A DNA stretch of 42,266 nt from Pedobacter sp. (GTDB taxonomy: Bacteria; Bacteroidota; Bacteroidia; Sphingobacteriales; Sphingobacteriaceae), in assembly GCF_035566355.1 (NCBI RefSeq), contig NZ_DATMRL010000661.1:1-42266 (forward strand), in the 5' to 3' direction. How positions within the stretch are numbered: position 1 is the stretch's first letter; each line of letters opens with the position of its first letter. Below, piece after piece: positions 14,984-23,949 of the stretch. A model generated the notes under the pieces. The model did no database searches, was not told the origin of the DNA, and worked only from the letters and a program-made list of their open reading frames with translations. A program made the position numbers and the translations under genes.

Positions 14984-15643
14984 ATGGGCAAAAAAGCAAT
15001 TCTCTTAGGCGCAAGCGGACTCATTGGCACACATCTTCTTTCTCTGCTGCTCAACAGCAGCACTTACGAACAGGTATTGATCCTGGTCCGGAAAGAATTG
15101 GATATACAACATCCGAAACTCCGTCAGCTGGTTGTAGACTTTGAGCTTTTAAATCAATATGCGCATGAAATCAAAGGCAATGTGGTGTTTTGCTGTTTAG
15201 GTACCACCAAGAGTAAAACCCCAGACCCTGCTCAATACAGAAAAATTGATCTTCAATACCCGGTAGATGTGGCCTGGATGGCGCAATCCAACGGCGCAGA
15301 ACAATATCATCTGGTATCAGCCTTGGGGGCCAACAGGAATTCTTCCATTTTCTATTCTAAACTAAAGGGGGAAGCCGAGCACGAGATCAAAGCCGTTCCA
15401 TTCAAAGCTATTCACATCTATCAGCCTTCCTTGTTGGATGGAGATAGAAAAGAAAGCCGTTTTGGAGAACTCACCATGATCAGGATCATGCGCGTCCTTA
15501 ACCCTCTGCTTATTGGTCCGCTGAAAAAATACAGGAGCATTAAGGTCAGCAAAGTGGCCATGGCCATGTTCCTGAAGTCAACAGAAGAGCATAAAGGCAT
15601 CTATACCTATACCTCTGAACAGATAGAAACTATAGGTTCGTAA
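14984..15643 (+). CDS. NAD(P)-binding oxidoreductase, TIP30/CC3 (YraR-like) atypical SDR
   Basis: LGASGLIG, FCCLGTT, VSALGA..S..FYSKLKGE and PSLL.G.R. Confidence 0.85.
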   Translation: MGKKAILLGASGLIGTHLLSLLLNSSTYEQVLILVRKELDIQHPKLRQLVVDFELLNQYAHEIKGNVVFCCLGTTKSKTPDPAQYRKIDLQYPVDVAWMAQSNGAEQYHLVSALGANRNSSIFYSKLKGEAEHEIKAVPFKAIHIYQPSLLDGDRKESRFGELTMIRIMRVLNPLLIGPLKKYRSIKVSKVAMAMFLKSTEEHKGIYTYTSEQIETIGS

Positions 15644-16463
15644 ACCTCGGTTTTCTTGGAAATGCCCAGGTCAGAAATGCAGGCAATGCTTTTGCCCAGG
15701 TGGCCACTTCATGCTTTCCGCCCACCATCTCATAATAAAAGATATCCTCAGGCCGCTTATAGCTTTTTGCCATCAATTCCTTGATCACATCAACAGTATC
15801 ATCGATAGAATCTATAATAAAATTCCGGTTCCGGTCAGCCGTTTCATCATCCGTACCGGTCATCAGCCAGAACTGGGCTTCGGGTTTTCCTGTTGTGGTT
15901 CTGATCATTTCATGCAAAATCCTGTCCTGATCATCCCGGTAACCATCTTTCAGGTCTTTTTTCCGCCACCAGAAAGATCCAGAAAATACCCCGGCTACAT
16001 CAAATAAGTTATCATTGTTCCAAACGATATCAAATGCAGACAAGCCACCCAGGGAAAAACCAGCAAAAGCCCGTTTACCATTTACAGGAACAGACACTTC
16101 AGCCTGCACAAAAGGAAGTAACTCATTGGTAATAAAAGCGGTATACTTATCCGCTTTCGCCCCTCTCCCAAGGAAATCAGGAACACCGGCAACACCATAT
16201 TCCTGAACACGATCTTCTGAAGCCTTAATGGCAACAACAATCAGCGGTTCAATTTTACCAGAAGTATACAATTGAGAAAGTGCATCCTGAACTTGCATCG
16301 CTTCCGATTCCTGGCCATCATTTAACAACAACAGATTCACTTCTTCATTCCCCATCAGCTCATCGGGACTGTACATCTCCAGTTCCACTGTTCTGTTTAG
16401 ATGGAGCGATTTAATGCGATGCGTTGATTTGATAATTTCAGATGATAACATGGTTGTATACAT
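15630..16463 (-). CDS. Alpha/beta hydrolase, esterase family (Fes/PF00756-like)
   Basis: LLNDGQ, nucleophile elbow GFSLGG, FSGSFWW and C-terminal GGKH. Confidence 0.85.
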   Translation of the reverse strand: MYTTMLSSEIIKSTHRIKSLHLNRTVELEMYSPDELMGNEEVNLLLLNDGQESEAMQVQDALSQLYTSGKIEPLIVVAIKASEDRVQEYGVAGVPDFLGRGAKADKYTAFITNELLPFVQAEVSVPVNGKRAFAGFSLGGLSAFDIVWNNDNLFDVAGVFSGSFWWRKKDLKDGYRDDQDRILHEMIRTTTGKPEAQFWLMTGTDDETADRNRNFIIDSIDDTVDVIKELMAKSYKRPEDIFYYEMVGGKHEVATWAKALPAFLTWAFPRKPRFTNL

Positions 16464-16496
16464 AATTCAGCAATTCCCTTTCACAAAAATTTTTCG

Positions 16497-16504
16497 CAAA
16501 GATA
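16497..16504 (-). promoter_or_regulatory. -7 box TATCTTTG for the divergent esterase
   Basis: Exact TAnnTTTG match 33 nt upstream of ATG 16463. Confidence 0.6.
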
Positions 16505-16637
16505 TTAATCTGTATAAATTTTGAGATAACACTTCTGTTTTTTTACTTAAAACACAGATTTATAGTAAGAAAACACCCTTAAATACTTGTTTATAAAAAG
16601 GTTCTTTCTTACCTTTTAGCACCTAAATTTTCGATTT

Positions 16638-17342
16638 ATGCAAGAAGACTATATAAAGTGGTATAGCCCAAACCTGAGTGCAGATTTCGAAATGCTCACT
16701 TTTGGCCATGGCGGTTACCCCATCGTACTATTCCCTACAAGCAAGGGACGTTATTATGAGAACAAGGATTTTAAACTTATCGAATCCGCAAGGCATTTAA
16801 TTGAGGAAGGAAAAGTTAAGATTTATTGTCCTGACGGAATTGACGACCTCAGCTGGTACAACAAAAGCATTCATCCGGCCGACCGGGTAAAGAACCACAT
16901 CTGGTACGATAAAATGCTGCTGGAAGAAGTAGCGCCCCGTGCCAGACAGGAAACCGGATTTGAAAAGATCATTACTGCCGGATGCAGTTTTGGGGGTTAC
17001 CATGCCGCAAACTTTGCCTTCCGGCATCCCTGGCTGGTCAGTCATTTATTCAGTATGAGTGGTGCTTTTGATCTCAGAGGGCAAATGGACGGCTTTTACA
17101 ACGGCGATTTCTATTACAACAACCCTATTGATTTTCTACCGAACGATCAGAGTGCCGCACTCTGGGATATGAAAGTCGTTTTGGGTGCCGCCGACAGGGA
17201 TATTTGCCGGCACGACAACGAAAGGTTGTCTGAAATATTAAGCCGCAAAGGGATGAACCACTGGCTGGACATTCGTCACAACGCAGATCATGACTGGGTC
17301 ATCTGGCGGCAAATGTTTCCCGAATACCTTGGACAACTTTAA
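16638..17342 (+). CDS. Alpha/beta hydrolase, esterase family
   Basis: FGHGGYPIVLFPT, GCSFGGYHA nucleophile motif and HDWVIW catalytic His. Confidence 0.85.
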   Translation: MQEDYIKWYSPNLSADFEMLTFGHGGYPIVLFPTSKGRYYENKDFKLIESARHLIEEGKVKIYCPDGIDDLSWYNKSIHPADRVKNHIWYDKMLLEEVAPRARQETGFEKIITAGCSFGGYHAANFAFRHPWLVSHLFSMSGAFDLRGQMDGFYNGDFYYNNPIDFLPNDQSAALWDMKVVLGAADRDICRHDNERLSEILSRKGMNHWLDIRHNADHDWVIWRQMFPEYLGQL

Positions 17343-17379
17343 AAAACACATACAAACAGCATTTAAAAACGATATATTT

Positions 17380-18432
17380 ATGAAGAAAATAGGCATCCTG
17401 TTCGGTAAAGAAAGATCTTTTCCGGAAGCTTTCGTAAAACGAGTTAACCAAATTGCCGGCAAAGATATCCGTGCAGAATTTGTAAGTATCGATAAAATAT
17501 TCCAGGCTGAACCCCTGGATTACGCCGTCATTATCGACCGTATATCCCAGGATGTTCCATTTTACAGGGCCGCCTTAAAAAACGCAGCCATTACCGGAAC
17601 TGCCGTCATCAACAATCCGTTTTGGTGGAGTGCAGACGAGAAATTCTTCAACAATGCCCTGGCCGTAAAACTCGGCATCCCAGTACCCAAAACAGCCTTG
17701 ATCCCTTCAAAGGAACATCCCGATGATACTTCAGAACAGTCCTTCAGTAATCTGGCATATCCCATGGACTGGAATACCATATTTGATTACACTGGTTTTC
17801 CAGCCTATATGAAACCTTTTGACGGTGGCGGATGGAAAGAGGTTTATAAGCTTCACGACAAAGAAGACTTTTTTGACAAACACAGCCAAACTAAACAAAC
17901 GGTAATGATGCTCCAGGAAGAGATCATTTTTGATGAATATTACCGGTGCTACTGTATTGGAGGGAAGTATGTACGCATCATGCAGTACGAGCCGAGAAAC
18001 CCTTTTCATTTGCGCTACTCCGTAAACACCCCTCCTTCCAGCGAAAAATTGCTAAAAACCATACACGATTATGTGATTAAATTGAACCAATACCTGGGAT
18101 ACGACTTCAATACCGTAGAATTTGCGGTGAGAGACGGTATCCCTTATGCTATAGATTTCTGTAATCCGGCCCCGGATGCCGAAGTGACCAGTGTCGGACA
18201 GGAGAATTTTGACTGGGTCGTAGAACATGCTGCAAAATATGCCATTGAAAGAGCCCAAGCACACAAAACAGATCAGGATAACCTGACATGGGGCGAATAC
18301 ATTAAGACTTCAGCAGCAGGAAAACCACTGGTTGCCCCCAAAAAAACTGCAACTCCGGCAGGCAAACCCCTTGTCCAGGAAAAAGCAAAACCAGCTCCAG
18401 CAAAGAAAGCTCCGGTTAAAAAAACAAAATAA
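17380..18432 (+). CDS. RimK-like ATP-grasp ligase with Lys/Ala/Pro-rich tail
   Basis: VINNP, DEKFF, GIPVPKT, PAYMKPFDGGGW and LQEEI; ATG 17380 follows an AT-rich leader (ORF-track start 17290 overlaps the upstream gene). Confidence 0.85.
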   Translation: MKKIGILFGKERSFPEAFVKRVNQIAGKDIRAEFVSIDKIFQAEPLDYAVIIDRISQDVPFYRAALKNAAITGTAVINNPFWWSADEKFFNNALAVKLGIPVPKTALIPSKEHPDDTSEQSFSNLAYPMDWNTIFDYTGFPAYMKPFDGGGWKEVYKLHDKEDFFDKHSQTKQTVMMLQEEIIFDEYYRCYCIGGKYVRIMQYEPRNPFHLRYSVNTPPSSEKLLKTIHDYVIKLNQYLGYDFNTVEFAVRDGIPYAIDFCNPAPDAEVTSVGQENFDWVVEHAAKYAIERAQAHKTDQDNLTWGEYIKTSAAGKPLVAPKKTATPAGKPLVQEKAKPAPAKKAPVKKTK

Positions 18433-18479
18433 GCCAATAAAGGCAAACCAGATAAACACCTATAGAAATACCAAATATA

Positions 18480-19583
18480 ATGATGAATGATTTCACACTG
18501 GGAATAGAAGAAGAGTACATGGTCATTGATCCTGTTACCCGCGAGCTGACTTCTCATGACCAAAAAATTGTAGAAGCAGCTCAAAAAATACATAAAGATC
18601 AGGTTAAGGCTGAAATGCACCAGGCTGTAGTAGAAGTTGGGACCGGAATTTGCAGGAACACCAGCCAGGCCAGGGAGGAAATCACCCAGTTGAGACATAC
18701 CGTTTCCCAGCTGGCCGGAGAACAGGGTCTGCGGATCGGAGCCTCGGGAACACATCCCTTTTCCCACTGGGAGAAACAGCTGATTACTGAACACCCACGT
18801 TACAGCGAAATTGTAAATGAACTGCAGGAAGCTGCCCGTTCTAACCTGATCTTTGGCCTGCACGTACATGTAGGTTTTCAATCCCGGGAGCTGGCCATAC
18901 ATATTGCCAATCAGGTACGATATTTTCTACCGCATGTCTTTGCCTTGTCTGCCAATTCTCCATTCTGGGAAGGCAGAAACACAGGATATAAGTCTTTCAG
19001 AACCAAAGTTTTTGATAAATTTCCCCGTACAGGAATCCCCGATATTTTCAACAGCATTGAAGATTATGACAATTATGTAAAACTGCTCATCAAAACCAAC
19101 AGCATAGACAACGCCAAGAAAATCTGGTGGGACATCCGGGTTCACCCTTTCTTCGAAACCATTGAGTTCAGGATTTGTGACTGCCCGATGCTGGTCGATG
19201 AAACCATGGCTTTTACAGCCCTGTTCCAGGCACTTTGTGCCAAACTCTACAAACTCAGACTGCAAAACATGAAATTTATCAGTTACTCCAGAGCTCTTAT
19301 CAATGAGAACAAATGGCGGGCTGCCCGTTATGGTATAGACGGCAACCTGATCGACTTTGGAAAAGAAATGGAGGTGAACTGTCGCAACCTGGTCTTGGAA
19401 CTTCTGGACTTTGTAGACGATGTAGTGGACGAACTGGGCTGCAGGGAAGACTTGAACTATGTCCATAAGATCTTACAGAATGGAACCGGCGCAGACCGGC
19501 AACTGGCGGTATACGAACAAACTGGCAGTTTTGAATCGGTAGTAGACTATATCACCACCCAAACCCTCCTGGGAACAAAATAA
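18480..19583 (+). CDS. YbdK/GCS2 family carboxylate-amine (glutamate-cysteine ligase-like) ligase
   Basis: TLGIEEEY, GTHPF, FGLHVHVG, ALSANSPFW.G, WWDIR, TIEFRICD and ENKWRAARYG. Confidence 0.93.
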   Translation: MMNDFTLGIEEEYMVIDPVTRELTSHDQKIVEAAQKIHKDQVKAEMHQAVVEVGTGICRNTSQAREEITQLRHTVSQLAGEQGLRIGASGTHPFSHWEKQLITEHPRYSEIVNELQEAARSNLIFGLHVHVGFQSRELAIHIANQVRYFLPHVFALSANSPFWEGRNTGYKSFRTKVFDKFPRTGIPDIFNSIEDYDNYVKLLIKTNSIDNAKKIWWDIRVHPFFETIEFRICDCPMLVDETMAFTALFQALCAKLYKLRLQNMKFISYSRALINENKWRAARYGIDGNLIDFGKEMEVNCRNLVLELLDFVDDVVDELGCREDLNYVHKILQNGTGADRQLAVYEQTGSFESVVDYITTQTLLGTK

Positions 19584-19584
19584 C

Positions 19585-20430
19585 ATGAGCAGCAAAAGAG
19601 CGATCAAAGTGGCCGTTATCGATATGAATAACGGCGCTCCGAATCAGGGCATGAGGGGAATTAAAGAGATCCTGCATCAATATAAAATGCAAACTGGCAC
19701 ACCTCTTTCTTTCGAAGTCTTTGACCTGAGACAAAAAGAGGAAATCCCAGGTATAGACTATGATATTTATATCTCCTCCGGTGGCCCCGGAAGTCCATAT
19801 GAAGGAGAAGGTCTGGCATGGGAGACACATTTCTTCCATCTGCTGGACCAGGTAGAGGAGTTCAACAAGGAAAACGAACGAAAAAAATCCTTCTTTTTTA
19901 TCTGCCATTCTTTCCAGTTGGCTTGCAGAAAGTACGGTCTGGGCAAGGTCACCCGACGCAAGTCAAACGCCTTCGGCATCTTCCCCATTACCCTCACCAG
20001 CGAAGGTGAAAAGGACCTGATCTACCAGGGCCTGCCGAATCCTTTCTATTCAGTAGACAGCCGCGACTGGCAGGTGATCTCCCCGGATGAAGACAAATTC
20101 AGCAACACCGGAGCAGAAATACTCGCCATTGAAAAAGAAAGACCACATGTAGACCTGGAACGCTGCATTATGTCCATCCGTTTTTCCAGAGAATTTGTGG
20201 GCACGCAATTCCATCCGGAAGCCGACCCGGTTGGCATGAAAATGTACTTACTGCAGGATGAAAAAAAAGCCGCAATTACAGAGAACCATGGAGAAGAAAA
20301 ATACCTGGATATGCTCAACAGCCTGGACGATCCGGAACGTATTAGCCTTACCCAGCGGATTATTTTGCCCAATTTTTTAAACGAAGCCATTCAACTATTA
20401 CAGGAGAAGGAACATGATCAGCAAGTATAG
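19585..20430 (+). CDS. Class I glutamine amidotransferase-like protein
   Basis: SGGPGSP oxyanion motif, ICHSFQ nucleophile Cys and QFHPE His-Glu. Confidence 0.88.
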   Translation: MSSKRAIKVAVIDMNNGAPNQGMRGIKEILHQYKMQTGTPLSFEVFDLRQKEEIPGIDYDIYISSGGPGSPYEGEGLAWETHFFHLLDQVEEFNKENERKKSFFFICHSFQLACRKYGLGKVTRRKSNAFGIFPITLTSEGEKDLIYQGLPNPFYSVDSRDWQVISPDEDKFSNTGAEILAIEKERPHVDLERCIMSIRFSREFVGTQFHPEADPVGMKMYLLQDEKKAAITENHGEEKYLDMLNSLDDPERISLTQRIILPNFLNEAIQLLQEKEHDQQV

Positions 20431-21607
20431 AAAACAATTCAACAGCAATTTTACGCATCAGAAATATAGCTTGTTCCTCCAAAACCTAACAAAGGATCTT
20501 CTTCCAATTTCCTTCAGGGTTGCAGAAACACCTATATTTATCCCCCCCGAACTGAAGGAGAAACTTATTTCCGCCGGCGAAGAGATCATTAACCTGATCC
20601 GTCAGCCGGATTTTAAGGAGCTGACCAGCAAATCCATTCCGGATCAATGGAAAGTCCCGGGAGAAGAAAAACATCCACATTTTTTAACTTTTGATTTTGG
20701 GATATGTAAAGATCAAAATGGGGAACTGATCCCCAAACTGATAGAGATGCAGGGGTTTCCATCACTCTATGGTTTTCAGGCACACCTGGCCGAACGATAC
20801 ATCGACAGCTATGAACTGGATGAAATGGCTTCGTTCAGCCCGTTCTTCAACCAGCTGAACAAGGAGCAATACGTCAATCTGCTAAAAGAAGTCCTGATCG
20901 GAGCACATGAGCCACACGAAGTTGCCCTCATGGACATTGATGCGCCTGATCAAAAAACCGCGATCGACTTTTACCTCACCCAGAAATATACCGGACTGAA
21001 AATACTCAGCCTCACCGATATTTTCAGAGAAGGCAATCAGTTATTCTATGAAGAAAACGGAAAGAAAATCCGTTTAAAACGCATTTATAACCGCTTAATC
21101 TTTGATGAGATAGAAAACAAAACGCATTTGTTTGAGCAGAGTTTTGACCCCAGGACAACCCTGGATATTGAATGGATCACCCACCCCAATTGGTTTTACA
21201 GGATCAGCAAGTATACCATGCCTTTCCTGAAAAGTGATTTTGTACCCGAAACCCGGTTCCTGAACCAAATCGATCCCCTTCCGTCAGACCTGGAGAACTA
21301 TGTGCTGAAACCGCTGTTTTCTTTTGCCGGCCTGGGTGTAATCATTGATGTAAAACTTCAGGACATTAAAAATGTAAAAGATCCGCATAACTGGATCCTG
21401 CAACGAAAAGTGCAGTACGAACCTGTAGTGCAGGCCCTGGATGGCGGGGTAAAAGCAGAAATCCGCCTTATGTATCTGTGGCCTGAAAACGGCGAACCAC
21501 AGCTTTGCATTAATCTGGCAAGGCTGAGCCGGGGAAAAATGATCGGCGTACGTTATAATAAAGATTTTGACTGGGTGGGTGGAACTGTTGGATTAATGGA
21601 GAAGTAA
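20414..21607 (+). CDS. Circularly permuted ATP-grasp-like ligase (glutathionylspermidine synthetase-like)
   Basis: FDF...PKLIEMQG precedes IYNR, RISK, YVLKPLFSFAGLGV and WILQRKV, the motif order expected for a circular permutation. Confidence 0.65.
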   Translation: MISKYRKQFNSNFTHQKYSLFLQNLTKDLLPISFRVAETPIFIPPELKEKLISAGEEIINLIRQPDFKELTSKSIPDQWKVPGEEKHPHFLTFDFGICKDQNGELIPKLIEMQGFPSLYGFQAHLAERYIDSYELDEMASFSPFFNQLNKEQYVNLLKEVLIGAHEPHEVALMDIDAPDQKTAIDFYLTQKYTGLKILSLTDIFREGNQLFYEENGKKIRLKRIYNRLIFDEIENKTHLFEQSFDPRTTLDIEWITHPNWFYRISKYTMPFLKSDFVPETRFLNQIDPLPSDLENYVLKPLFSFAGLGVIIDVKLQDIKNVKDPHNWILQRKVQYEPVVQALDGGVKAEIRLMYLWPENGEPQLCINLARLSRGKMIGVRYNKDFDWVGGTVGLMEK

Positions 21608-21834: not shown

Positions 21835-22422
21835 ATGCTTGAACCTTTCAAGGAATATCTGCAAAAGAAAGTAGCGATAACTGATGAACAATTTGATCTT
21901 ATTTCACATAAACTGAAGGTAAAAACTTTCAGTAAAAATGAAATGATCCTGATGAAAGGTGATTTTTCGACACAAGGCTTTTTCGTGCTTAGCGGATTGC
22001 TGCGCAGTTACTCCATCGATGCCAAAGGAAAAACCCACATCATCCAGTTTGCACCTGAACAATGGTGGCTTTCTGAACGCAACGGCCATTTCAATGAACC
22101 ATCTGATTTCTTTATAGATGCCATTGAGTCCACTCAGGCCATCCTGATGCCAAAAGACTTCATCAATGAGGCGGCAGAAATTGTGCCCTGTATGAATCCG
22201 CTCAACAGTACTATGCTGAATAATGCCATTCGTTTTATGCAGAAACGCATCAATATGCTCTTAAGCGCCACGGCAGAAGAGCGGTACCTTGACTTTATAA
22301 AGCTCTATCCCAATCTCACTTTAAGGGTTCCCCAATGGATGATTGCCTCTTATTTGGGCATCACACCTGAATCGTTAAGCCGGGTACGTAAAGACCTTGC
22401 ACACAAACATTTCCACCCATAA
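21835..22422 (+). CDS. Crp/Fnr family transcriptional regulator
   Basis: cNMP-binding-like N-terminus (FVLSGLLRSY) and HTH IASYLGITPESLSRVRK. Confidence 0.92.
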   Translation: MLEPFKEYLQKKVAITDEQFDLISHKLKVKTFSKNEMILMKGDFSTQGFFVLSGLLRSYSIDAKGKTHIIQFAPEQWWLSERNGHFNEPSDFFIDAIESTQAILMPKDFINEAAEIVPCMNPLNSTMLNNAIRFMQKRINMLLSATAEERYLDFIKLYPNLTLRVPQWMIASYLGITPESLSRVRKDLAHKHFHP

Positions 22423-22429
22423 GCATTTC

Positions 22430-22473
22430 TTATCCTAGATCAATGCGGAGCTGATGACTTGGCTGTAATTTTG
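22430..22473 (+). promoter_or_regulatory. Candidate Crp/Fnr site (TTATCCTAGATCAA) plus -7 box (TAATTTTG) for yceI-pirin
   Basis: 14-bp imperfect palindrome with an ATCAA half-site at 22430-22443; exact TAnnTTTG at 22466-22473. Confidence 0.5.
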
Positions 22474-22509
22474 TGCTGTATTATTAATCAATCTAATAAT
22501 TAAAATATT

Positions 22510-23040
22510 ATGGCAACAACTAAATGGTCTTTAGACCCAACCCACAGCGAACTGGAATTCAAGGTAAAACATTTAATGATCACTACGGTGACCGGAAAAT
22601 TAAACGAATTCACTTCCGAACTCGTTTCTGAAGGTGACGATTTCAATCATGCAAAAGTTTCTTTCGAAGCGAAACTTTCCTCGGTAGACACCGGTAACAC
22701 AGATCGAGACAACCATTTGAAAAGTCCTGACTTCTTTGATGCAGACCAGTTCCCTTTACTAACGTTCGACTCTGGTGTATTGTCTGAAGACGGAGATGAC
22801 TATGCATTAAAAGGAAATCTAACGATTAAAGGCATTACCAAACCCGTTCAACTGACCGTTGAATTTGGTGGTATTGCAACAGATCCCTGGGGAAATACCA
22901 AAGCCGGTTTTACACTGAGCGGCAAGATAAAAAGAACCGACTTTGGACTAAACTGGAATGCAGCTCTGGAAACAGGTGGTGTAATGGTGAGTGAAGAAGT
23001 CCGCATACTGGGTGAATTGCAATTTGTAAAACAAGCCTAA
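22510..23040 (+). CDS. YceI family (polyisoprenoid-binding) protein
   Basis: WSLDPTHS..F.VKHLMI, RDNHLKSPDFFD, GNLTIKG and DPWG. Confidence 0.93.
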   Translation: MATTKWSLDPTHSELEFKVKHLMITTVTGKLNEFTSELVSEGDDFNHAKVSFEAKLSSVDTGNTDRDNHLKSPDFFDADQFPLLTFDSGVLSEDGDDYALKGNLTIKGITKPVQLTVEFGGIATDPWGNTKAGFTLSGKIKRTDFGLNWNAALETGGVMVSEEVRILGELQFVKQA

Positions 23041-23073
23041 TTGCAACATCCTTTTTCAACAGAAAGGAAACAA

Positions 23074-23949
23074 ATGAAAACAACAATAAAGTCGGTTGCT
23101 GCCGTTTTAAATGCGCCGGCACCTCATATGGTGGGCGACGGTTTCAGGGTCCACAATTTTTTCCCTGGAGGCTATAAAATAAATATGAGCCCGTTCTACC
23201 TGCTCGATTACAATGCGAAAATTGATTTTTCAGCACGAAATGAACCAAGAGGGGTCGGAGTGCATCCCCACAGAGGGTTTGAAACGGTGACCATCGCTTA
23301 TCATGGTGCCGTAGCGCATCATGACAGCGCCGGAAACAGCGGTGTTATTTACCCGGGAGATGTGCAATGGATGACCGCTGCAAGCGGAATTCTGCATAAA
23401 GAATACCATGAAGAAACCTATAGCAAAAGCGGAGGTCCTTTTCAAATGGTCCAGCTCTGGGTAAACCTGCCGTCGCAATACAAAATGACCAGGCCCAAAT
23501 ATCAGGCCCTGAAACATGATGAAATCAACCGGGTCAATCTACCAGACCATAGCGGACAAATTGAAGTCATTGCAGGCAACTATCAAGGTATAAAAGGTTC
23601 CGCCAGTACCTTTACTCCAGTTCACGTATATAATGCCAGGCTGAATACTGGAGCAAAAGCCTCCTTTGACTTTCCTGCAGCGTACAACACAGGTTTTGTG
23701 GTTATTGAAGGAAAGATCAGGATCAATCAAACAGAGACTGCCCTGGCCAATCAGTTCATTCACTTCGGCCCTGAGGGCGAGGAAATTGAAATAGAAGCTT
23801 TAGAACCTAGCGTAGTGCTGATTCTAAGCGGGGAACCTATTGATGAACCTGTTACTGCCTATGGTCCGTTCTTAATGAATACGCCCGAAGAAATACAACA
23901 GGCGATCAGCGATTACAACCAGGGGAAATTTGGTTTCCTGGAAGACTAG
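23074..23949 (+). CDS. Pirin family protein
   Basis: HPHRGFETVT, HHDS.G, VQWMTA.SGI.H.E, QLWVNLP and YGPFLMN; ATG at 23074. Confidence 0.93.
   Translation: MKTTIKSVAAVLNAPAPHMVGDGFRVHNFFPGGYKINMSPFYLLDYNAKIDFSARNEPRGVGVHPHRGFETVTIAYHGAVAHHDSAGNSGVIYPGDVQWMTAASGILHKEYHEETYSKSGGPFQMVQLWVNLPSQYKMTRPKYQALKHDEINRVNLPDHSGQIEVIAGNYQGIKGSASTFTPVHVYNARLNTGAKASFDFPAAYNTGFVVIEGKIRINQTETALANQFIHFGPEGEEIEIEALEPSVVLILSGEPIDEPVTAYGPFLMNTPEEIQQAISDYNQGKFGFLED

Follow-up and report, generated by a model that had tools for sequence, protein, structure and literature searches.

A widespread, uncharacterised cluster of three amide ligases and exchangeable hydrolases in Pedobacter and its relatives, with a probable role in making and recycling a small glutamyl peptide

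This study concerns six neighbouring genes in a stretch of 42,266 nucleotides from Pedobacter sp. (contig NZ_DATMRL010000661.1 of assembly GCF_035566355.1; this whole stretch is called the window). They encode two ATP-grasp ligases, a carboxylate-amine ligase of the YbdK/GCS2 type, a cysteine enzyme of the class I glutamine amidotransferase (GATase) fold and two esterases. Iyer, Abhiman, Burroughs and Aravind in 2009, and the text of the Pfam entry PF14403, reportedly predicted small-peptide synthesis for neighbourhoods of permuted ATP-grasp, GCS2, alpha/beta hydrolase and peptidase genes. According to PMC12568646, the enzymes YgiC and YjfC are peptide-polyamine ligases, YgiC being a peptide-spermidine ligase, and Cp1B joins epoxysuccinate to amino acids; PMC12506659 adds that YgiC is without GspS activity. 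PMC6920838 describes the formation of poly-alpha-glutamate, up to 46-mers, from free glutamate by RimK, and PMC13674229 the formation of gamma-glutamyl-2-thiohistidine by RimK-like and by YbdK-like enzymes.

Our search of the open literature (supplements and subscription papers lay outside its scope) found no study, product or experiment for the cluster itself, which is widespread and uncharacterised. Like the system reportedly predicted in 2009, it brings a permuted ATP-grasp, a GCS2 enzyme, an alpha/beta hydrolase and a peptidase together, and in 8 sampled genomes a PF14403-type ligase adjoins the same ATP-grasp and GATase. The cluster was anticipated computationally in this sense, and the version in the window differs from the prediction in ligase subfamily and hydrolase: its permuted ligase is not a PF14403 member but a remote homologue with altered motifs, and its GATase is of class I. 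On balance we consider it probable that the cluster makes, independently of the ribosome, a small glutamyl peptide or peptide-amine and also recycles it, a reading in which we infer the substrates, the order of steps and the purpose. The members lie in the window as follows.

15630..16463, minus strand: estA, PF00756 alpha/beta serine hydrolase of 277 residues with GFSLG at 135-139 and His251; divergent accessory member
16497..16504, minus strand: TAnnTTTG box upstream of estA; of 36 divergent estA/estB spacers, 27 carry it on the estA strand and 4 on the estB strand
16638..17342, plus strand: estB, alpha/beta serine hydrolase of 234 residues with G115-C-S117-F-G119, D188 and H218; first gene of the operon
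17380..18432, plus strand: classical ATP-grasp of 350 residues with a predicted RimK/LysX/ArgX fold; likely core gene
18316..18429, plus strand: variable Lys/Ala/Pro-rich C-terminal tail of the classical ATP-grasp
18480..19583, plus strand: YbdK/GCS2 carboxylate-amine ligase of 367 residues; likely accessory
19585..20430, plus strand: class I GATase-fold cysteine enzyme of 281 residues with C107-H210-E212
20414..21607, plus strand: predicted circularly permuted ATP-grasp of 397 residues, outside existing Pfam families

All six open reading frames lie where the initial annotation had placed them, including the 1-nt gap between YbdK and GATase and the 17-nt overlap between the GATase and 397-residue genes. 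It had also described the proteins as having no evident signal peptide, and an N-terminal hydrophobic stretch was indeed absent from 6 of 6 (maximum mean hydropathy 0.98 over 11 residues, a crude test made with no dedicated predictor). The classical ATP-grasp most likely starts at 17380 and not at the longer reading-frame start at 17290, because its homologues begin with the same N-terminus. Every cluster gene is single-copy in the genome of the window (G000; 6.4 Mb, 94% complete), and the nearest named relatives of the encoded proteins come from Pedobacter.

Each part of the cluster was searched for in 201 Bacteroidota genomes, each at least 90% complete and evenly spread over the phylum, and neighbourhoods were counted within 8 kb of the classical ATP-grasp in the best 80 of 594 Bacteroidota loci anchored on it, some of them shortened by contig ends. 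Of these 80 loci, 77 held YbdK, 70 estA, 52 the GATase, 49 the 397-residue family and 43 estB, which exceeds chance when set against 3 for the flanking epimerase family and 13 for the flanking Crp family. At the genome level, the ATP-grasp occurred in 57 genomes. The GATase (E ≤ 1e-20) was found in 35, all of them with the ATP-grasp, and the 397-residue family in 47, of which 46 had the ATP-grasp. YbdK orthologues (at least 46% identity) were present in 47 of the 57 ATP-grasp genomes and in 0 of the 144 others, with six weaker matches at 28-38% identity excluded from a total of 53; for the estB family the figures were 55 of 57 and 10 of 144. Two of the 57 genomes, G006 and G137, carry diverged ATP-grasp homologues (34-36% identity), and the remaining 55 are referred to as canonical. 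A permuted ligase was present in 54 of these 55, as the 397-residue type in 46, as the PF14403 type in 8 and never as both. The core likely consists of the classical ATP-grasp, the permuted ATP-grasp and an estB-family esterase, with YbdK as an accessory member.

A metagenome scan with a distant alignment as query returned 80 loci, mostly of 52-65% GC, which held YbdK in 60 cases, estB in 57, the 397-residue family in 36 and the GATase in 1; estA was near the ATP-grasp in 8, as against 70 of the best 80 Bacteroidota loci. When 10 of the metagenome ATP-grasps were looked up, the protein clusters of 7 listed members from Terriglobales, Sulfotelmatobacter or Bryobacteraceae (Acidobacteriota), and the acidobacterial clusters comprised hundreds to about 2000 members. 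The ESM Atlas listed look-alike clusters from Acidobacteriota and Chloroflexota. The core set thus recurs in both Bacteroidota and Acidobacteriota, and some of its parts are interchangeable.

Two such exchanges were found, one affecting the hydrolase and one affecting the permuted ligase. The GATase matched PF00117 with 51 bits (cut-off 22.8), and its C107-H210-E212 triad was kept in 29 of 29 aligned proteins. Among 192 loci anchored on the classical ATP-grasp, 64 carried this enzyme, 50 carried an M29 metallopeptidase and none carried both. The M29 gene lay after YbdK in 50 of 50 cases and before the permuted ligase in 40, and in the consensus of its protein the family's Glu/His/Asp motifs are intact. 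At the genome level, cluster-type M29 proteins (at least 61% identity) occurred in 6 genomes, all adjoining the cluster and none together with a GATase, and distant M29 paralogues (26-32% identity) occurred in 22 other genomes. A quick tree was built from 62 of the 192 locus ATP-grasps; the GATase/M29 label must change 3 times on it, and well-supported branches force at least 2 of these changes.

Because M29 takes the slot of the GATase in other lineages, the GATase-fold enzyme is likely a hydrolase. Its replacement in 50 loci argues against a role as ammonia supplier to a partner synthetase. An aminopeptidase cannot donate ammonia, so the simplest job for the two enzymes to share would be hydrolysing a peptide whose N-terminus is free, as we infer that of the product to be. 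For the GATase, the nearest NCBIfam models were PRK07567, PRK09065 and PRK08250, which describe stand-alone glutamine amidotransferases and whose cut-offs it missed by far. That the cluster both builds and recycles its product had already been suggested, and the exchange strengthens this logic. In L105, L106 and L108, which come from three genomes without GATase and M29, an Amidohydro_3 gene flanks the detached permuted ligase; it is possibly a third hydrolase type.

The 397-residue protein gave no match at E ≤ 0.05 in Pfam or NCBIfam, PF03738, PF04174 and PF14403 included, and single-sequence searches of the PDB with this protein, the GATase and the M29 enzyme also gave none. A model built from a 108-sequence alignment reached a predicted local distance difference test score (pLDDT) of 96. 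Its top structural match was YgiC (Z 25.9, root-mean-square deviation 3.2, 329 aligned residues), followed by GspS (Z 24.5), 3n6x (Z 24.2) and Cp1B (Z 23.2), and also by trypanothione synthetase and eukaryotic glutathione synthetases. Ten permuted enzymes scored Z 25.9-20.3 as against 8.2 for the best classical ATP-grasp; Foldseek agreed, and the family profile matched YgiC at E 6e-4. The proposal that this protein, although without a Pfam match, is a permuted ATP-grasp was therefore upheld by a predicted fold that spans the whole chain.

Across the same 108 sequences, D94, E111, R227, K266 and R370 are invariant (108 of 108 for D94, E111, K266 and R370) and K299 is kept in 107; going by known motifs, we take D94, E111, K266, K299 and R370 to be the metal- and ATP-binding Asp, Glu, two Lys and C-terminal Arg. 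Position 92 is variable and not Arg (A 35, Q 25, T 9, L 9), and position 113 is Gln in 106, giving E-x-Q instead of E-x-N. The motifs R-x-D and E-x-N, which we take to be those of the GspS active site, are both invariant in the PF14403-type ligases (n = 7). Since the 397-residue family departs from the GspS motifs at both positions, it would form a permuted ATP-grasp subfamily of its own. Like YgiC/YjfC and GspSA, the protein combines the predicted permuted fold with a pairing of ligase and cysteine hydrolase. Unlike them, it shares 13% identity, carries neither R-x-D nor E-x-N, stands in an operon with two more ligases and occurs in hosts in which no glutathione genes were found; the hydrolase is a separate class I GATase-fold or M29 protein, whereas that of GspSA is a fused CHAP amidase.

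In 8 genomes a PF14403-type ligase of 450-470 residues replaces the 397-residue type between ATP-grasp and GATase. Four of the 7 variant ligases scanned passed the PF14403 cut-off (L091, L093, L094 and L222), and the two ligase types are remotely homologous (hhalign 92%, E 6e-7). The ATP-grasps of these genomes form one branch in the quick tree, and the named relatives of one of them are mostly Rhodothermia. One such locus has a fourth ATP-grasp (PF13535) after the esterase (L091:13136-14311). Among the permuted ATP-grasps themselves, a sodium:solute symporter (PF00474) is fused in frame to the ligase in L101:6890-9538, L102:6637-9240 and protein P0251, with one cluster member named from Candidatus Thermochlorobacter. 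This could be a genuine fusion or a lost stop codon, and it gives a weak hint at a small imported substrate. Four homologues of the 397-residue ligase (P0267, P0285, P0304 and P0310) have N-terminal extensions of 150-190 residues with a signal-peptide-like start and no Pfam match.

The model of the classical ATP-grasp reached a pLDDT of 91, and its closest folds were RimK (Z 21.5) and ArgX and LysX/ArgX (Z 21.1); Ddl, synapsin and inositol kinases came next at Z 18-19. It scored 31.3 bits against TIGR00768 (cut-off 143.4) and 24.7 against TIGR02144 (cut-off 275.6). The earlier label "RimK-like" therefore holds for the predicted fold, which is closest to RimK/LysX, and does not hold as membership of the RimK family, whose cut-off is missed by more than 100 bits. 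The conserved residues are K88, K145, Q179-E180, R189, E247, D259 and N262. In common with RimK, LysX and ArgX, the protein has their predicted fold with conserved nucleotide- and metal-binding residues; unlike them, it shares 15-17% identity, stays far below the TIGR00768 cut-off, has no LysW-like carrier nearby and does not show in its consensus the R-S-N-x-x-x-G-G loop of these enzymes. The C-terminal tail is at least 15 residues long in 102 of 183 homologues and shorter in 81, and consists of 24% K, 21% A and 9% P. Histone-H1-like Lys/Ala/Pro tails were seen in L009, L115, P0216 and P0494, reaching about 200 residues in P0494, and are absent in many homologues. A complex prediction for the classical ATP-grasp with estB gave no answer (score 0.00 in two runs) and counts neither way. 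The diverged ATP-grasps L095:8631-9599 (G006) and L096:8883-9872 (G137) stand alone on very long branches, in genomes without other cluster genes. L095 has lost the K-P-x-x-G-G-G-W loop, and both are possibly inactive or repurposed.

YbdK exceeded every family cut-off (PF04107, 212.6 versus 21; NF010039, 543 versus 371; TIGR02050, 302 versus 176), and it matched 1r8g at E 9e-49. It is thus a member of the same family as E. coli YbdK (GCS2, PF04107; 1r8g and 1tt4), but unlike that enzyme it belongs to the PRK13515 subfamily, which is tied to the cluster, with 55-92% identity in 44 of the 47 counted genomes. YbdK is likely accessory, as no orthologue was found in 8 of the 55 canonical genomes (three of one family and five of the PF14403 type), all of which keep the other two ligases. 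This weakens the earlier idea that the three ligases form three amide bonds in series. The thioglutine clusters (PMC13674229) are comparable in that one and the same gamma-glutamyl dipeptide is a product of both RimK-like and YbdK-like enzymes; they differ in the sulfoxide synthase that defines them, which was not seen among the recurring neighbours here.

Both esterases belong to PF00756 and have a G-x-S-x-G elbow and a C-terminal His. Their profile matches in the PDB were generic esterases and ferulic-acid esterases. A relation to S-formylglutathione hydrolases, which had been raised earlier, lost ground, as estA and estB matched just the generic PF00756 model and weak NCBIfam models of the enterochelin-esterase type. 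A second subfamily of the estB family (L201-L220; about 30-45% identity) stands alone, away from the cluster and with no recurring neighbour.

On this favoured reading, the cluster would work as a cytoplasmic pathway, encoded by an operon and one divergent gene, that builds its small glutamyl peptide or peptide-amine and later degrades it. The classical ATP-grasp, as a core enzyme, would convert the carboxyl of glutamate or of a glutamyl peptide to an acyl phosphate and couple it to an amino acid. YbdK would contribute a gamma-glutamyl group in an accessory or partly redundant step; its loss would be explained if, as PMC13674229 describes, a gamma-glutamyl dipeptide can be made by RimK-like and by YbdK-like enzymes alike. 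The permuted ATP-grasp, also core, would activate the C-terminal carboxyl of a short peptide and cap it with a final amine (a polyamine or an amino acid), in the manner of YgiC and GspS. N-terminal residues would be removed by the GATase-fold enzyme or by M29, recycling or maturing the product, and the serine hydrolases may cleave an ester or an amide formed from this compound. Such a pathway would likely serve to store or buffer an amine or amino acid reversibly, rather than to supply a redox thiol. The genome of the window also has a deoxyhypusine-synthase-family gene, which says nothing specific about a polyamine substrate.

Several observations weigh against this proposal. Distant M29 paralogues co-exist with the GATase in 7 genomes, and both the GATase and a cluster-type M29 are missing from 14 of the 55 canonical genomes. 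The GATase profile matches the homoserine acyltransferase MetA (2vdj, E 6.6e-4) about as well as the GATase-like 3l7n (E 6.3e-4), so acyl transfer is conceivable. The chemistry of the 397-residue family may differ from that of GspS and YgiC, judging from the missing Arg two residues before D94 and from Gln113. RimK, LysX and ArgX act on protein acceptors in vivo. In several lineages the cluster genes are dispersed over the chromosome. Finally, the sampled genomes and loci are related, so the counts overstate independence and should be read as descriptions, not as independent tests.

A broader and unlikely alternative is a previously unrecognised system of reversible conjugation in Bacteroidota and Acidobacteriota, in which the three ligases, each of a different mechanism, would write a branched glutamyl-peptide tag onto proteins or onto a core metabolite (bacillithiol or a polyamine, for example), interchangeable cysteine or metallo-peptidases would erase it and the 397-residue enzyme, given its non-canonical active site, would bring new ligase chemistry. 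A separate rival is reversible protein tagging, with the RimK/LysX-fold enzyme priming a protein carboxyl, the other ligases extending or capping the tag and the hydrolases erasing it. The acceptors used by the best fold matches of the classical ATP-grasp are in keeping with this, and its frequent Lys/Ala/Pro tail could localise the enzyme to a polyanion. However, the fold of the 350-residue protein hardly tells the acceptor, since Ddl, synapsin and the inositol kinases score nearly as high, and the RimK family cut-off is missed by a wide margin. Every fold neighbour of the permuted ligase whose activity is known has small-molecule substrates. In a screen of 1906 small open reading frames, none within 600 nt of the cluster was conserved across lineages, and no LysW-like frame with an acidic tail recurred. 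This absence of a conserved small acceptor or carrier gene beside the cluster weakens the tagging model put forward in the initial annotation, and although a distant target is possible, we regard protein tagging as distinctly unlikely.

The initial annotation had also offered a glutathione-like peptide. A low-molecular-weight thiol could arise if gamma-Glu-Cys were extended by both ATP-grasps, or if bacillithiol were conjugated at its cysteinyl amine or malate carboxyls. A gamma-Glu-Cys ligase activity of E. coli YbdK is cited in PMC13674229, the permuted ligase shares its predicted fold with eukaryotic glutathione synthetase, and bacillithiol would be available, since bshC (PF10079) is present in G000 and in 54 of 54 canonical relatives. 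A bacillithiol link on the basis of this co-occurrence was nevertheless rejected, as bshC is found in 193 of the 201 sampled genomes and is hence not cluster-specific; a host with this pathway would not need a second buffer. GST_N matches were absent from G000 and its 54 canonical relatives, G000 gave no GshB or GGT match at its 94% completeness, and the recurring neighbours, of which the commonest clusters were scanned, included no recognisable reductase, peroxidase or transferase; two GSHPx-family genes occur in G000. YbdK, the sole step with a cysteine precedent, is dispensable. With the bshC pathway in all 55 hosts and GST_N in none, a stand-in for glutathione is improbable, and a thiol product in general we consider quite improbable. 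What stands of the earlier interpretation is a conserved unit of several ligases and several hydrolases without an assigned product, together with the predicted permuted fold of the 397-residue protein and the logic of building and recycling; the glutathione-like compound, the bonds in series and the tagging have all become weaker.

It is very unlikely that the cluster forms a storage polymer, such as poly-glutamate or a cyanophycin-like compound, that the hydrolases would mobilise. RimK does polymerise free glutamate to chains of up to 46 residues (PMC6920838), an M29 exopeptidase or GATase-fold hydrolase partner resembles the logic of cyanophycinase, and a Lys-rich tail could bind a polyanion. 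Yet permuted ATP-grasps of known activity carry out single terminal ligations, and the tail falls short of 15 residues in 81 of the 183 homologues. Least probable of all is one-way biosynthesis in which the GATase-fold enzyme would cap the product, either as an acyltransferase like MetA or as an amidotransferase: the MetA 2vdj match covers an F-x-x-x-x-S-R stretch, the 17-nt overlap couples the GATase translationally to the permuted ligase and the fold neighbour Cp1B (Z 23.2) joins amino acids to an acid of the succinate type (PMC12568646), but after at least 2 exchanges an M29 aminopeptidase exclusively holds the same slot, and the nearest NCBIfam models were glutamine amidotransferases far below cut-off, with no MetA model among the matches listed.

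The surroundings of the cluster were considered as well. The TAnnTTTG box upstream of estA corresponds to what we take to be the Bacteroidota -7 promoter consensus. A dedicated operator or alternative-sigma motif before estB was rejected, as just a degenerate -7-like box is found there in Pedobacter, and scans for sigma-70 promoters and terminators gave matches at chance level. RNA run X1 was discarded as expression evidence: on contigs of 4 to 15 kb with an identity near 94%, its cover was flat over genes and spacers, as DNA of a relative would give. A plasmid search with the classical ATP-grasp gave no match.

Next to estA, an NAD-binding epimerase-like gene (14984-15643, plus strand) shares the last 14 nt at its 3' end with the 3' end of estA. 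Directly 3' of the operon follows a 52-residue FeoB-associated Cys-rich membrane protein (PF12669; 21658-21816, plus strand), and then a trio of a Crp-family regulator and two further genes (21835-23949, plus strand), which we take to be YceI-like and pirin-like; the trio lies 3' of the operon in about 13 Pedobacter-type loci. None of these was accepted as part of the cluster. In the best 80 of the 594 loci, the epimerase was within 8 kb in 3 and the Crp family in 13, and the FeoB-associated peptide, found beside the cluster in 18 loci (window included), is confined to loci of the Sphingobacteriaceae type. Seven loci of several lineages (L030, L046, L075, L086, L089, L090 and L115) have a gene for a MalK-type ATP-binding cassette ATPase close to the cluster. 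A link to glycogen or sugars, prompted by this gene and by a 4-alpha-glucanotransferase in L093, was not kept, as 20 extra estB-family loci showed no recurring partner.

The cluster is highly conserved, and if it makes a metabolite, then abundant environmental bacteria share a common compound that has yet to be named. A minimal version likely needs just the classical and the permuted ATP-grasp, and the exchanges make the function directly testable. In addition, the three new amide-ligase subfamilies would be candidates for use as biocatalysts.

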